Below the pieces are notes generated by a model that searched no databases, was not told where the DNA came from, and saw only the letters and a program-made list of their open reading frames with translations. This document shows, piece after piece, positions 53,233-56,313 of a DNA stretch of 64,000 nt. Numbering within the stretch: the stretch's first letter is position 1; the number at the start of each line of letters is the position of its first letter. This stretch comes from an uncultured Verrucomicrobiota bacterium (lineage in GTDB: Bacteria; Verrucomicrobiota; Verrucomicrobiia; Limisphaerales; JAYPEY01), in NCBI GenBank assembly GCA_964519245.1, contig CAZFLK010000002.1, positions 45,077-109,076 on the forward strand. Reading direction: 5' to 3'. The position numbers and the translations under genes are program-made.

Positions 53233-54087
53233 TCACTTCTTCTGCGCGTCCAGGGCGGCCTGGGCCTTGGCGGCGGCTTCCTCAGCCTTCTTGGCGATCT
53301 CATCGGGTGAGGGCAGCGACATCAGCACCTCGGGGGGGATATCGCCCTCCTGGACCAGTTTGGTCAGGCACTTCTTGCGTTCGTTGAGCGCCTTGTCGGA
53401 GCTGCGCTCCTTGGAGAAGCGGGATTTCGCGCGTTCGCTGCGCTGGCGCAGCATGTCGTAGACATCGCCGCCCAGCAGCGAGGAGATGTCGACTTTCATC
53501 TTCTCGCGTTTCATGTCCGCGTCGCTGACCAGGTCGCCATTGATGGGGCCGGACTTGTACTTGGGGAACATGATCGCCGCCTCGGGGCACACACGGGAAC
53601 AGGCCGGACAGTTGGTCTTGCAATTGTCGTTGTTGCGGACCTCGATCTGTTGGTCGTCGTCGACGCCGTAGACATCAAACAGGCAGAAGCTCAGGCACTG
53701 CATACAGTTGGTGCAGCGGTCATAGTCGATGACGGGAAACCATGGCTTCCACTCGCCATGCTTCGAGGTCCGGGTTTCCTCGCGAAGGGCGTCGATGCGC
53801 TCGGCCAGATCCGCCGGCGCCTGGCCGTCGATGTTCTCGAATGTCACGCTGACCTCGCCAGAGGCGTCCTCGGCCTCGGGCGCCCGACCGTTGTCGAATC
53901 GGCCCAGGGCCACGATGGCGCTGCGGTCCGCCGGCGCCACGCGTCCGCCGGTTCCGGCGCGCGTCACGGTGTAGCCCTTGTCAAGCAACGCGGACAGGAT
54001 GTTGAAGCGCTCCTCGGCCGGGAGTTCCGTCGCGCCCTCGCCCTCGTAGAGAACGACGCGCAATGTGTTTTCTTCAAGCAGACTCAT
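53233..54087 (-). CDS. 2x[4Fe-4S] ferredoxin-domain protein with N-terminal unknown domain and Lys/Glu/Ala-rich tail
   Basis: The internal ATG at 54087 gives [18 protein letters not shown].... The cluster motifs are [11 protein letters not shown] (CxxCxxCxxxC) and [13 protein letters not shown] (CxxxCxxCxxxCP). The C-terminus is charged and helical (...[20 protein letters not shown]). Confidence 0.8.
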
Positions 54088-54105
54088 GGGCGTGGTGCGT
54101 GATTG

Positions 54106-54167
54106 GAGCGCCGAGCATGGCTCGGCATCGTCTTGGTTACTGAGGGTCCTGCCGAGCCATGCTCGGC
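54106..54167. repeat. second REP-like palindrome pair of the same family
   Basis: gccgagcatggctcggc (54110-54126) and its exact reverse complement gccgagccatgctcggc (54151-54167) are separated by 24 nt. Each is a hairpin with a 7-bp stem and 3-nt loop. The flank gagc...a is shared with the 53111 copy. It overlaps the last codons of the 54137..54565 ORF. Confidence 0.6.
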
Positions 54168-54565
54168 GGGCCGTCCGATTCACTTGCCGGCGCGTCGGTT
54201 GCCCGGGGTTTTCCTTCGGGAATATTGGGGTTCAGTTCCTGGGAAAGCAATGCCGACGAAACCTCCTCGGCCGCCTCGACGCGCATGTTGAGGACTTCGG
54301 TGGCGTCCTTCACCAGCGGCGCGCCTGCGGCGGAGAACAGCCACTTGACCGCGCGCGGGTAGCAGGCGGCGATCTTGACCGCGCCGCCTTCGGTCAGTCG
54401 CTTCAATCCCGGATCCTTTCGCGCCGACATCTCGCACAGATCCGCGACCGCGTCGAAGGCGGCGCCGGAGTCGCAGAGCCTTCGCAGCACGGCCTCCTTA
54501 ACGTCGGGCGGCACGATCTTGGCGTAGGCGCAGTTGCAGTAGAGAATGCGGGGTTGTTCGGACAT
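54137..54565 (-). CDS. small Cys-containing cytoplasmic protein, unknown family
   Basis: ATG start 18 nt after the GTPase stop: [46 protein letters not shown]...IAACYP. It has five Cys, including CxC. The last 10 or so codons are supplied by the REP element, so the true C-terminus is uncertain. Confidence 0.5.
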
Positions 54566-54583
54566 GGGTCTGCCAATTCGAGA

Positions 54584-55726
54584 TCAAGCCGCCGGATCGG
54601 CGATGCGATGCGTGGGTTCCGGCTTGCCGGGGCGGAAGTGTTCGGTGTGCTCGATCCGGGCCGTCAGCCCGGGAAAGCGCTCCTGCAGGGCGGCGAGTCC
54701 CTGAGTGACCGCCTCACTCAGCGTATCCGGCTCCGCCTCGGCGCGCATGTTGATGATCAGTTGGCCCGATTTCACGGTGTCGTCCAGTTCCTGGGAAAGT
54801 TCGGCGACGTAGTCGTTGCGGACGAGGTTGACCACGGCGATGTCGCCGAGGCCGCCGTCCGGACTGAAGGTCATTTTCAAGTGGGCGATTTCGGCGTCTT
54901 GTCCGGCCAGGCGCGACTGCATGCTCTTGCAGAGGGCGCGCAACGCCTTGTTGGCGTCGAATTCGGTTTTCGAGGAAAGTTGCACGGTGCAGTTGAGCCA
55001 GCCCAGCAGGGCTTCGCCCTCCGCGTAGACCTCGTAGTCGACGTCCATGGCGACCCGGGCCTCCTGTTCCGCGTCCCACAGATGCGCGAACCAGTTGTTG
55101 AGCCCCTTCTCCTCGCGGGCGGACACCTCGAATATTCGGGCGTTGGGATAGTGCTCGTTGAGGCAGTTTCCCAGCATGGCGATGTCGCATTCCTCGAGAA
55201 TGTCGCACTTGTTGATGACGATGACATCCGCCTCCTCGAGTTGCTTCTTGTAGATGTATCGGACTTTCTCGGAGAAGCGGCCTCCTTCGTTCAGGCCGAA
55301 TACGCGGGCCGCGCGGACGGGATCCACCACCACGCTCAGCGGCGCAATCTTGAAATCCTCGCCATACATCCGACGCAGGGGGTAGGTCACGGTCGCGACC
55401 AGGTCCGTGCAACTGCCGACGGGCTCGGCGATGAACACATCCGGTCGGGTCGCGTCATTCAATTTGGCGGCGGCGTCGACCAGCGAGTTGAACCGACAGC
55501 AGAAACAGCCGCCGGAAATCTCCTCGGTCGGGAATCCGCGGGAGCGCAGCATGGCGGTGTCGACCAGTTCATTGCCCTGATCGTTGGTGATCAGACCGAC
55601 CTTCAAACCCTGGTCGCTCAACAGCTGAGCCATCTTGGCGATTGAGGTCGTTTTTCCCGCGCCCAGGAAGCCGCCAATCATGATGTAGCGGGCCTTGGTG
55701 GCGTGTTGGTCGTCTGTTTCGATCAT
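54584..55726 (-). CDS. G3E-family P-loop GTPase, COG0523/CobW-like metallochaperone type
   Basis: Walker A is IMIGGFLGAGKTT. A CxCC metal motif lies in ISGGCFCCRF. Walker B-like is FIAEPVGSCTD and NKxD is VIVINKCD. The C-terminal domain is divergent. Confidence 0.85.
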   Translation of the reverse strand: MIETDDQHATKARYIMIGGFLGAGKTTSIAKMAQLLSDQGLKVGLITNDQGNELVDTAMLRSRGFPTEEISGGCFCCRFNSLVDAAAKLNDATRPDVFIAEPVGSCTDLVATVTYPLRRMYGEDFKIAPLSVVVDPVRAARVFGLNEGGRFSEKVRYIYKKQLEEADVIVINKCDILEECDIAMLGNCLNEHYPNARIFEVSAREEKGLNNWFAHLWDAEQEARVAMDVDYEVYAEGEALLGWLNCTVQLSSKTEFDANKALRALCKSMQSRLAGQDAEIAHLKMTFSPDGGLGDIAVVNLVRNDYVAELSQELDDTVKSGQLIINMRAEAEPDTLSEAVTQGLAALQERFPGLTARIEHTEHFRPGKPEPTHRIADPAA

Positions 55727-55729
55727 GGC

Positions 55730-55761
55730 GCGGGATGCGGGATGCGGGATGCGGGATGCGG
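55730..55761. repeat. tandem heptanucleotide repeat (GCGGGAT)x4 plus a partial fifth copy
   Basis: Perfect copies lie at 55730-36, 55737-43, 55744-50 and 55751-57, followed by gcgg. On the coding (minus) strand this reads (ATCCCGC)x4 ending 3 nt before the GTPase ATG at 55726, where a ribosome-binding site would sit. Confidence 0.85.
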
Positions 55762-55830
55762 CGTGTGTTGATTTTTGGGTAGAGAGTTTAGGTCAATTGA
55801 TATCCGGATCGTTCAGCCTGTTGCCGCGCC

Positions 55831-56313
55831 TCAATCAATCTCATCCGCGCGCTGGTTCTCCAGAATCTTGTCGATGGTCTTGTCCAAGACGGCGGCATAG
55901 GCGTCGACATTCATGCGCTTGTCATCCGGTTCTCCGGTCGCCTCATACAGCCAGCCGGTGTTGTAGGGGTCCTTGTCGATCGCGTTGAGCTTCTTCTCCA
56001 GCGCTGGATTGGTTCCCGTGAACGAGCCGTCGATGACACAGTAGATGTCCGAGATGGCCTTGAATCCCTCGATCCAGCCAATGATCTGGCCGGTTTTGAC
56101 CGCGGCTTTCGGTTGTTCCTCAAAGCCGAAATCGACGAGTTCGCCCAGCATGCGGGTGGCAAACTTGGTCAAACCGACGCGCCAGAGGCCGGTGTCATCC
56201 CGACGCTCGAGCCAGCAGTGTGACGGCGTGTAGAGGAAGTCCGTCGGCAGCCGCGTCACGAAATGCGAGCGGCGGTAGTGCAGGGTTTCGCGATTGGTTG
56301 GTTTGTCGGCCAT
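55831..56313 (-). CDS. glycine-cleavage H-protein-like (lipoyl-carrier fold) protein
   Basis: YTPSHCWLERRDDTGLWRVGLTKFATRMLGELVDFGF...GQIIGWIEGFKAISDIYCVIDG has the GcvH layout with the lipoyl-Lys position conserved (EGFKAISD against the canonical ESVKAASD). The ATG at 56313 was chosen; the track start 56361 is a TTG overlapping fabD. Confidence 0.75.
   Translation of the reverse strand: MADKPTNRETLHYRRSHFVTRLPTDFLYTPSHCWLERRDDTGLWRVGLTKFATRMLGELVDFGFEEQPKAAVKTGQIIGWIEGFKAISDIYCVIDGSFTGTNPALEKKLNAIDKDPYNTGWLYEATGEPDDKRMNVDAYAAVLDKTIDKILENQRADEID

Follow-up and report, generated by a model that had tools for sequence, protein, structure and literature searches.

Why should a gene for a protein with the fold of a lipoyl carrier stand together with genes for a metallochaperone-type GTPase, a small cysteine-containing protein and a ferredoxin, and what do the four products do? 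This question is raised by a stretch of 64,000 nucleotides (nt) from an uncultured bacterium of the order Limisphaerales (Verrucomicrobiota), which we refer to as the window. In it, the fabD gene is followed on the minus strand by four co-directional genes, all of which are present as originally predicted. They encode a protein related to the glycine cleavage H protein (GcvH-like), a G3E GTPase, a 142-amino-acid (aa) protein that we call CysP, and a ferredoxin (Fdx). The comparison of related loci revealed that this module forms the front half of a larger gene cluster, apparently an undescribed one, of Verrucomicrobiota and Planctomycetota, the back half of which is of the terpenoid type; no published account of the cluster was found in the literature searched. 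What is new here is a cluster of terpenoid and radical S-adenosylmethionine (radical-SAM) genes with unprecedented accessory proteins. Judged from its genomic setting, the module may be the electron-supply and maturation half of the cluster, with the other half making and modifying a polyprenyl-derived lipid, and we give this reading an even chance of being correct.

The genes of the window that are considered first are the following:

56327-57301, minus strand: fabD, malonyl-CoA:ACP transacylase (PF00698, E 1.5e-37; likely start at about 57259)
55831-56313, minus strand: GcvH-like protein, 160 aa (PF01597, E 1.1e-18)
54584-55726, minus strand: G3E/COG0523-like GTPase, 380 aa (PF02492, E 2.2e-25)
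54137-54565, minus strand: CysP, 142 aa, flavodoxin-like (AlphaFold2 model, pLDDT 86.5)
53233-54087, minus strand: Fdx, 284 aa (Fer4 families; PorD_KorD, 40.9 bits)
50489-52219, minus strand: fusion of DUF116 and a trans-polyprenyl diphosphate synthase (DUF116::PPS), 576 aa (PF01976, E 3.9e-34; PF00348, E 2.2e-40)
49564-50457, minus strand: alpha-alpha-toroid ('prenyltransferase-like') protein, 297 aa (PF00432, E 6.5e-17)

Conservation of the gene order in two phyla

An alignment of the GTPase was used to scan genomes represented by one per species. The scan gave at least 569 stretches with a gene for a relative, of which the best 80, all of the Verrucomicrobiota type, were analyzed. The GcvH-like gene lies directly before the GTPase gene in 50 of these 80 loci, with a median gap of 29 nt between the aligned segments and with occasional overlaps of 4 nt; CysP follows in 34 loci and Fdx in 33. 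Further downstream, DUF116::PPS is found within 0.1-6.5 kb in 21/80 loci (57-74% identical to the window protein) and the toroid protein in 17/80, while a gene for a 423-aa radical-SAM enzyme, named type 1 below, is located between Fdx and the synthase in 14/80. A protein resembling squalene-hopene cyclase (SHC) is encoded nearby in 5/80 loci. The commonest upstream neighbour, present in about 31 of the 80, is a gene for a NifS-like cysteine desulfurase that is divergent from the GcvH-like gene.

A second scan, of metagenomes, was anchored on a fused form of CysP and Fdx (CysP::Fdx) and provided 37 loci of at least 6 kb. DUF116::PPS was observed in 31 of them, the toroid protein in 29 and the cyclase in 23, and a radical-SAM gene stands next to Fdx in 33 (20 of type 1 and 13 of a second type). 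The GcvH-like gene and the GTPase gene were each found in 14 of the 37, and the cysteine desulfurase gene in six. The full cluster, which is tight in Planctomycetota, comprises a cysteine desulfurase gene in some of the loci, and genes for the GcvH-like protein, the G3E GTPase, CysP::Fdx, a radical-SAM enzyme, DUF116::PPS, the toroid protein and a class II terpene cyclase with a DxDDTA motif. For example, one locus of the Planctomycetota type (L090) encodes a GcvH-like protein of 151 aa, a cobW GTPase of 368 aa, a CysP::Fdx of 321 aa, a radical-SAM protein of 396 aa, a DUF116::PPS of 548 aa, a Prenyltrans-like protein of 290 aa and an SHC-like protein of 621 aa, with gaps of -41 to +13 nt throughout. 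In L089, L091, L172 and L174, CysP::Fdx is followed by the radical-SAM gene, DUF116::PPS, the toroid gene and, except in L174, the cyclase gene. A GT4 glycosyltransferase gene comes after the cyclase in L089, L091 and L172, with ABC/FtsX (MacB-like) genes after it in L172, and genes for PQQ_2/BamB-like beta-propeller proteins flank the Planctomycetota clusters (19/37 loci). These GT4, PQQ_2 and ABC/FtsX neighbours suggest a glycosylated, exported lipid product.

The arrangement is far beyond chance, as an identical order of the GcvH-like, GTPase, CysP and Fdx genes is found again in two phyla, in dozens of genomes at the species level, and the identities of 52-71% between the proteins of different orders argue for a core physiological role. 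The four genes had been read as one module, which agrees with their conservation as a unit in these counts. Its extent was correctly given in so far as the four genes are real, and it was underestimated in that the module does not end at the ferredoxin, the synteny running on to the genes at 49564-52219. An accidental neighbourhood of unrelated housekeeping genes has a negligible probability: the 104-nt gap within the block, the strong hairpins around fdx and the unrelated open reading frame (ORF) between fdx and the synthase gene would all fit such an accident, whereas more than 60 loci from two phyla keep the order, and the CysP and Fdx genes are even fused.

The position of fabD has to be considered separately. 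The original prediction connected the adjacency of fabD with the origin of lipoate from octanoyl-ACP. Yet fabD adjoins the module in 0/80 species-level loci and in 0/83 metagenome loci, and it stands in front of the module only in L087 and L088, whose GTPase is 89% identical to that of the window. As only these close relatives have kept fabD at this place, its link with the module is a recent, lineage-specific juxtaposition, fabD not being part of the conserved module, and for the same reason the octanoyl-ACP/lipoate argument is left without comparative backing. A self-contained lipoyl-arm module for redox chemistry or metal insertion, tied in function to fabD and fatty-acid synthesis through the origin of lipoate from octanoyl-ACP, is consequently very improbable. 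It would be in line with the 13-nt junction between fabD and the GcvH-like gene, which contains no terminator in the window or in the 89%-identical relatives, as well as with the conserved Lys85 of the GcvH-like protein and the CxCC motif of the GTPase. Besides the absence of fabD from the other loci, however, the genes of lipoate metabolism (LipA, LipB, LplA) are never conserved neighbours, and the module is consistently syntenic with terpenoid and radical-SAM genes instead. With the fabD link set aside as unsupported, the earlier interpretation is borne out in part: a lysine-arm module for redox or metal chemistry is plausible, and a redox or metal-insertion role is the natural reading of the four genes.

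The four proteins of the module

The GcvH-like protein has the PF01597 GCV_H fold (67.7 bits against a cut-off of 22.2) and can be aligned across the whole fold to 13 solved H-proteins, its K85 occupying the position of the lipoyl-Lys in 3ift and 3hgb. The conserved lipoyl-Lys position and the N-terminal extension, both noticed in the initial reading of the sequence, were found again in the alignments. Neither E82, K85 nor A86 varies among 51 Verrucomicrobiota homologues or in a set of 15 sequences composed of the window protein and 14 proteins from mixed Planctomycetota/Verrucomicrobiota-type metagenome loci; the IEGFKA hairpin motif is invariant in the 51 homologues, and the extension is real and partly conserved. 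The test for a bona fide GcvH equivalog failed (TIGR00527, 66.5 against 115.85 bits; NF002270, 79.7 against 117 bits), and the other NCBIfam H-protein models gave 32 of 150 bits (GcvH_rel_desulf) and 19 of 144 bits (not_gcvH). Owing to these scores below the cut-offs, and to a conserved N-terminal motif and a C-terminal helix of its own, we treated the protein as a putative distinct H-protein subfamily and not as a glycine cleavage system (GCS) component. In agreement with the original observation, genes for the glycine-cleavage P and T proteins, 2-oxoacid dehydrogenases or Hdr proteins were not detected within about 10 kb in the window; gcvT and gcvP are also missing among the conserved neighbours of 160 loci, and no Hdr-like gene (CCG-domain, HdrA) accompanies the H-like gene, either in the window or among the sets of conserved neighbours. 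Membership in the sHdr-LbpA group was rejected for the lack of such Hdr-like genes.

To our knowledge, only a few H-proteins function outside glycine cleavage, namely in the lipoyl relay, in sHdr (LbpA), as GcvH-L and in [FeFe]-hydrogenase maturation. Like LbpA of sHdr sulfur oxidation and the GcvH-L of the SirTM operon, the GcvH-like protein is encoded outside a GCS operon. With these two, the glycine-cleavage H protein and the chlamydial 'not_gcvH', it shares the PF01597 fold, a lipoyl-lysine hairpin with an invariant Lys, and a similar size. Unlike LbpA, GcvH-L and the H-protein of the GCS, it has as its apparent partners a G3E GTPase, an Fe-S protein, a radical-SAM enzyme and the products of terpenoid genes, and no Hdr, sirtuin or P/T proteins accompany it.

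The second protein was described at first as a G3E GTPase with the CxCC motif of COG0523, and by its motifs and by its fold (YjiA) it is indeed COG0523-like. The Walker A motif GFLGAGKTT and the motifs GGC74FC76C77, EPVGSC106TD and INKCD are all invariant, as are the residues C74, C76, C77, C106, H282, H360 and H373; no variation of CxCC is seen among 43 sequences or within the Planctomycetota set. PF02492 covers only residues 15-191, and no Pfam match to CobW_C (PF07683) was obtained past residue 191. The C-terminal domain of about 160 aa, which ends in an invariant HxEHFRPGKPxPTHR motif, was modelled as a different and larger alpha/beta domain than CobW_C. The AlphaFold2 model (pLDDT 78) matches the fold of YjiA best among the PDB structures, followed by HypB, UreG and MeaB; the match to YjiA covers both domains, but with a root-mean-square deviation of about 20 A.

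COG0523 proteins are metallochaperones, and known clients are mostly lacking for them. With YjiA, ZigA, ZNG1, CobW and Nha3, the window protein shares the G3E P-loop, the GCxCC sequence after switch I, the NKxD motif and the two-domain layout. It differs from these COG0523 members in the larger C-terminal domain, in the additional invariant Cys106 (EPVGSCTD), in scores far below the ZigA, CobW and YjiA cut-offs, and in a gene context with GcvH-like or ArsR/MIP genes where the context of the compared COG0523 proteins is that of Zur regulons.

A paralogous clade of GTPases, 63-66% identical to the GTPase of the window, occurs without a GcvH-like gene. In L041, L055, L056, L063, L069 and L025 the order is presumably ArsR-GTPase-MIP (MIP being an aquaporin-type channel), and what we take to be genes for ArsR, a PiT-family permease and a two-domain rhodanese are located nearby in L053, L066, L079, L081 and L084; these identities come from reading the sequences and not from profile searches, as does the C-terminal DCC motif that we assign to the ArsR-family regulator beside the paralogous GTPase. 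One metagenome-assembled genome (MAG), CAIJFT01, carries both GTPase paralogues. The contexts of this clade hint at a metalloid- or sulfur-linked role for its members. An arsenic or metalloid reading was not adopted for the module itself, and was retained only as a rival that enters through the paralogous clade.

In its general form, this rival states that the GcvH-like protein and its neighbouring GTPase are, whether or not the cysteine desulfurase takes part, an autonomous pair for sulfur or metal(loid) trafficking, for example in metal allocation or in dithiol protection against arsenite-type metalloids, and that their synteny with the CysP/Fdx-terpenoid operon is merely ancestral. Such an autonomous role is possible because the pair occurs alone in about 15 loci and because of the contexts of the paralogous clade, including the MAG with both paralogues; the cysteine desulfurase as the commonest upstream neighbour and the metallochaperone nature of COG0523 proteins point in the same direction. 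On the other hand, the order from the GcvH-like gene through to the cyclase gene, with overlapping or nearly abutting genes, is also found in the second phylum, and the GcvH-like gene tracks the type of the radical-SAM gene, being embedded between the radical-SAM gene and Fdx in L119. The metal(loid) specificity is itself putative, as the ArsR and MIP assignments were made by sequence reading. On balance, we consider an autonomous trafficking pair unlikely.

CysP contains the CxC motif and the three further cysteines that had been recognized in the 142-aa protein (C10xC12, C31, C44 and C68), of which C10, C12, C44 and C68 are invariant. No Pfam, NCBIfam or PDB sequence match was found for it, a PDB profile search included. 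The model shows a small flavodoxin-like alpha/beta domain, for which a Foldseek search against the PDB returned nothing significant (best E 0.019); the N-terminal domain of HdrA was matched with E 0.09, which leaves an MvhD/HdrA-like identity of CysP unsupported. Comparisons of CysP by hhalign with DUF116 and with the N-terminal and C-terminal regions of Fdx showed no homology.

Fdx, whose start codon agrees with the public gene call, has the layout proposed initially, that is, two ferredoxin clusters between an N-terminal domain and a long charged tail. The N-terminal domain of about 105 aa has no family match, the 2x[4Fe-4S] domain spans residues of about 118-175, and the charged tail of about 110 aa is conserved. 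The eight Cys of the two cluster motifs are conserved in 31 sequences, and several Fer4 Pfam families match. The best PDB matches are the delta subunit of pyruvate:ferredoxin oxidoreductase (9bt4_G) and that of oxalate oxidoreductase. The PorD-type delta subunits of 2-oxoacid:ferredoxin oxidoreductases (OFOR) align with the 2x[4Fe-4S] domain and with the preceding 'W..W.PvID.d.C' segment; unlike them, Fdx has additional N-terminal and tail domains and is fused to or paired with the four-Cys protein CysP. Membership in an OFOR was rejected, since no genes for OFOR alpha, beta or gamma subunits are present.

When 1.84 billion representative proteins were searched with a CysP profile (E <= 1e-3), 659 representatives were obtained, many of which are 280-440 aa long. 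In nine of ten relatives scanned with Pfam, CysP is N-terminal to a 2x[4Fe-4S] domain and the tail motifs of the window Fdx are present, while the N-terminal domain of Fdx is present in some of the fusions and not in others; the fusions that have a source name are from Planctomycetota. Following the Rosetta-stone argument, CysP and Fdx, because they are fused in Planctomycetota, form one unit and are two halves of one functional protein.

Three of the Planctomycetota CysP::Fdx proteins (P0267, P0303 and P0344) have long, Cys-rich, acidic tails, for instance CGCDCDP...CGCDC and CSCECSLPEC...CGCECTC, which resemble metallothionein-like metal-binding tails.

In public annotation, the genes of the module appear as 'glycine cleavage system H protein' and 'pyruvate/2-oxoacid:ferredoxin oxidoreductase delta subunit'; the present analysis corrects both assignments.

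Terpenoid and radical-SAM genes of the cluster

The synthase domain encoded in the window has both DDxxD motifs (IHDDIEDED and IRDDLDD), and its best PDB matches are geranylgeranyl and farnesyl diphosphate synthases. The Ala/Ser residues at -5/-4 before the first DDxxD presumably indicate a product longer than C20, if the chain-length rule applies as we assume. The cyclase of the cluster, which is not encoded in the window, contains the class II catalytic motif DADDTA (DxDDTA) and QW motifs. The DUF116 domain has at least six conserved Cys. It was predicted by Makarova et al. (PMC5898192) to be a Cys-rich, flavodoxin-like electron-transfer domain, and a fusion of DUF116 with a polyprenyl synthetase in Pirellula was noted by the same authors (PMC5898192). 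For Pirellula staleyi, the gene of the fusion is reported as Psta_0175.

The cluster resembles the hopanoid (hpn) clusters, which encode a squalene-hopene cyclase, the radical-SAM enzyme HpnH and a polyprenyl synthase, in that it has a trans-prenyl synthase, a class II cyclase (DxDDTA, about 620 aa) and a radical-SAM enzyme, and in some loci GT4 and ABC/FtsX genes close by. However, the cluster cyclase reached 110-112 bits against the SHC cut-off of 431 bits, and the type-1 radical-SAM enzyme 43.3 bits against the 225-bit cut-off of the adenosyl-hopene transferase HpnH. With both proteins so far below the cut-offs, membership in the hpn clusters was rejected. HpnC, HpnD and HpnE were not seen in the cluster, and hpn clusters offer no counterpart of the DUF116 fusion, the additional toroid protein, CysP::Fdx, the GcvH-like protein or the GTPase.

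A 392-aa ORF on the plus strand of the window (45645-46823), some 3 kb away from the genes for the prenyltransferase-like protein and the polyprenyl synthase, has a borderline match to isoprenylcysteine carboxyl methyltransferase (ICMT; 23.8 bits against a cut-off of 24), and this proximity may be a coincidence.

The slot after Fdx is occupied by two types of radical-SAM genes that are unrelated beyond the superfamily level. The type-1 enzymes are SPASM/NirJ-like proteins of about 400 aa that score at most 65 bits with any curated family, and the type-2 enzymes are B12-binding/MiaB-like proteins of about 530 aa; the contrast was drawn from loci L089, L091 and L100-L134 against L090, L092 and L135-L171. 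The two types look like a case of non-orthologous displacement, and which type is found correlates with whether the GcvH-like and GTPase genes are there or missing. Among the Fdx-anchored loci with sufficient flanking sequence, the GcvH-like gene is present in 15/17 with a type-1 enzyme and in 0/11 with a type-2 enzyme (Fisher p = 3.6e-6, a value that is inflated because the loci share ancestry and are phylogenetically non-independent). In L110 and L119, the GcvH-like gene is located inside the cluster without a GTPase gene, which is the strongest indication of a joint action of the H-like protein and the type-1 radical-SAM step.

The reading that we prefer, with the module as the accessory half of a terpenoid-lipid pathway, can be put as a series of steps. 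Gene content, motifs, fusions and synteny were observed directly, and from them we infer the assignment of the partners and all of the chemistry. The synthase would produce a polyprenyl diphosphate, which the toroid protein and the cyclase would bind and cyclise, and the radical-SAM enzyme would functionalise the hydrocarbon. CysP and Fdx, as one dedicated Fe-S carrier in two halves, would supply the radical-SAM cluster, and perhaps the Cys-rich domain DUF116 as well, with electrons of low potential. With its Lys85 presumably lipoylated, the GcvH-like protein would be a swinging-arm carrier of a thiol, a reducing equivalent or a small group that serves the type-1 (SPASM/NirJ-like) enzyme, for example as a donor of an H-atom or a thiol, and that is re-reduced via CysP/Fdx. 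The CxCC GTPase, together with sulfur derived from the desulfurase, may load or repair a metal or Fe-S site of one of the cluster partners.

A more specific proposal is that the lipoyl (dithiol) arm of the GcvH-like protein acts as a protein-borne co-substrate of the type-1 enzyme when terpenoids are modified, that is, as a carrier of a thiol, an H-atom or a one-carbon unit that is recycled by CysP/Fdx, and that it takes over the role of the cobalamin-binding domain of the type-2 enzyme. We regard this proposal as distinctly unlikely; if true, it would mean a new radical-SAM chemistry, a new role for an H-protein, and a COG0523-type GTPase as a maturation factor. A possible analogy for the type-1 enzyme is LipA acting on octanoyl-GcvH, which is likewise a radical-SAM enzyme with a (co-)substrate on the Lys arm of an H-protein; unlike in that case, the type-1 enzyme is not LipA-like and the cluster does not contain an octanoyl transferase.

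Only one documented case of cooperation between an H-protein, a GTPase and radical-SAM enzymes is known to us, namely the maturation of [FeFe]-hydrogenase, which provides a template of how the module could operate. There, the radical-SAM enzymes HydE and HydG, the GTPase HydF and an aminomethyl-lipoyl-H-protein act together, which sets a precedent for such a cooperation (PMC12752695, PMC11736057). The likeness is one of function and not of homology, HydF not being a G3E GTPase and the clients here seemingly being terpenoid enzymes. Membership in [FeFe]-hydrogenase maturation was rejected because HydA, HydE and HydG homologues are not present.

By analogy with this precedent, the genes could nevertheless form a dedicated system for metallocofactor or Fe-S maturation, in which the desulfurase, the GTPase as a scaffold, the H-like carrier, the radical-SAM enzyme and CysP/Fdx build a special cluster or cofactor for DUF116 or another client, the terpenoid enzymes being the clients and not the core of the pathway. 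We judge such a system unlikely. In addition to the documented triad, the six or more conserved Cys of DUF116, the cysteine desulfurase as a conserved neighbour and the metallothionein-like tails of some Planctomycetota CysP::Fdx proteins would suit it. However, the clusters with a type-2 enzyme keep DUF116::PPS without the GcvH-like gene and the GTPase gene, and DUF116 therefore does not depend universally on these two proteins. Moreover, no similarity to HydE, HydG or HydA was observed, and P or T proteins, none of which were seen nearby, would be required for the loading of an aminomethyl group.

Several observations weigh against the preferred role of the module in a terpenoid-lipid pathway. 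Every link between the partners is one of genomic context, and the statistical support from the two radical-SAM types is overstated for the reason of shared ancestry given above. The window itself is without radical-SAM, cyclase and cysteine desulfurase genes, and an adjacent radical-SAM gene is absent from 14 of 28 Verrucomicrobiota loci. In about 15 loci (e.g. L004) the GcvH-like/GTPase pair is found without the other cluster genes nearby, so that the two proteins may have an independent function, and the type-1 clusters of L108, L129 and L172 are without both genes. Genes for a lipoate ligase or synthase (LipA, LipB, LplA) are never conserved neighbours, and the lipoylation of the GcvH-like protein is putative. 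Finally, several of the genes are transcribed at a low level in four salt-marsh metatranscriptomes, in which the contigs are short (150-250 nt) and all intragenic, none of them bridging a gene junction.

The locus offers the H-protein and the COG0523 GTPase a concrete client set that can be tested, in the form of a highly conserved radical-SAM/terpenoid pathway, in two phyla that are abundant in the environment and about whose membrane lipids little is known. Should it be confirmed, the preferred role would add a new terpenoid-lipid pathway to the Planctomycetota-Verrucomicrobiota-Chlamydiota (PVC) group, with a lipid that could be a biomarker, as well as a new family of two-part Fe-S carriers (CysP::Fdx, at least 659 representative clusters and no Pfam model) and a function for DUF116.

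Spacers, repeats and neighbouring genes in the window

Besides the genes given above, the following features of the window were considered:

55730-55761, no strand: heptanucleotide tandem repeat, 4.6 copies (Tandem Repeats Finder score 64, 100% matches)
54110-54167, no strand: palindrome doublet, copy 1 (GCCGAGCnnnGCTCGGC x2; -44.8 kcal/mol, z -7.4)
53116-53174, no strand: palindrome doublet, copy 2 (-51.4 kcal/mol, z -8.1), about 60 nt past the Fdx stop
52425-53141, minus strand: lineage-specific ORF (probable start at about 52949, about 174 aa; no family match)

The junctions measure 13 nt (fabD-GcvH), 104 nt (GcvH-GTPase), 18 nt (GTPase-CysP) and 49 nt (CysP-Fdx). The lengths of 13 and 18 nt had been stated correctly and assigned to the first two junctions; from the order of the lengths, the tight junctions are the first and the third. 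A terminator scan detected none on the gene strand within the four-gene block, as had been noted for the fabD-GcvH and GTPase-CysP gaps, and a single one on the opposite strand (53478-53507). No promoter-like sites were found by scanning the inside of the block.

The 104-nt spacer contains a perfect (GCGGGAT)x4.6 repeat that ends 3 nt 5' of the GTPase start codon. At the equivalent place, L087 (about 8960-8995) and L088 have another heptamer, CCCACGC, which is present in five copies in one of these two strains and in three in the other, the GTPase proteins of both being identical. The heptamer has the appearance of a variable simple-sequence repeat and could tune the expression of the GTPase.

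The palindrome element is about 60 nt long and consists of two 17-nt palindromes; its two copies flank fdx, and all four palindromes of the 64-kb window are located at these two sites (chance expectation, 0.1). The hairpins have stems of about 19-24 bp, that of the copy in the CysP-Fdx spacer measuring about 19 bp, and, as neither is followed by a U-tract, they are not canonical terminators. The copy at 54110-54167 overlaps the 3' end of the CysP gene and codes for the C-terminal tail of CysP, which is not conserved. Among 171 other loci the element is absent from all, and it may be an element of the repetitive extragenic palindrome (REP) or miniature inverted-repeat transposable element (MITE) kind, or a structure for mRNA processing or stabilisation.

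The window belongs to a lineage of salt-marsh and estuary Verrucomicrobiota, the closest named relatives being Limisphaerales MAGs. The cluster has become eroded in this lineage: neither a radical-SAM gene nor the cyclase gene lies within the 64 kb, and fabD and the ORF are juxtaposed with the module; no type-1 radical-SAM, cysteine desulfurase or terpene cyclase gene was detected in the window at E < 1e-8. The ORF at 52425-53141 sits in the slot where other genomes have the radical-SAM gene. It has no Pfam or NCBIfam match and no homologue in the 80 related loci, and in L087 unannotated ORFs of 253 and 174 aa are found at its place.

On the other side of the module, two genes for multihaem cytochromes of the c type, with Cytochrome_C554 and c7-like domains, are located on the plus strand at 58784-60793 and 62196-63203, with a 492-aa ORF without assignment between them, all of them upstream of a Gfo/Idh/MocA oxidoreductase gene and fabD.

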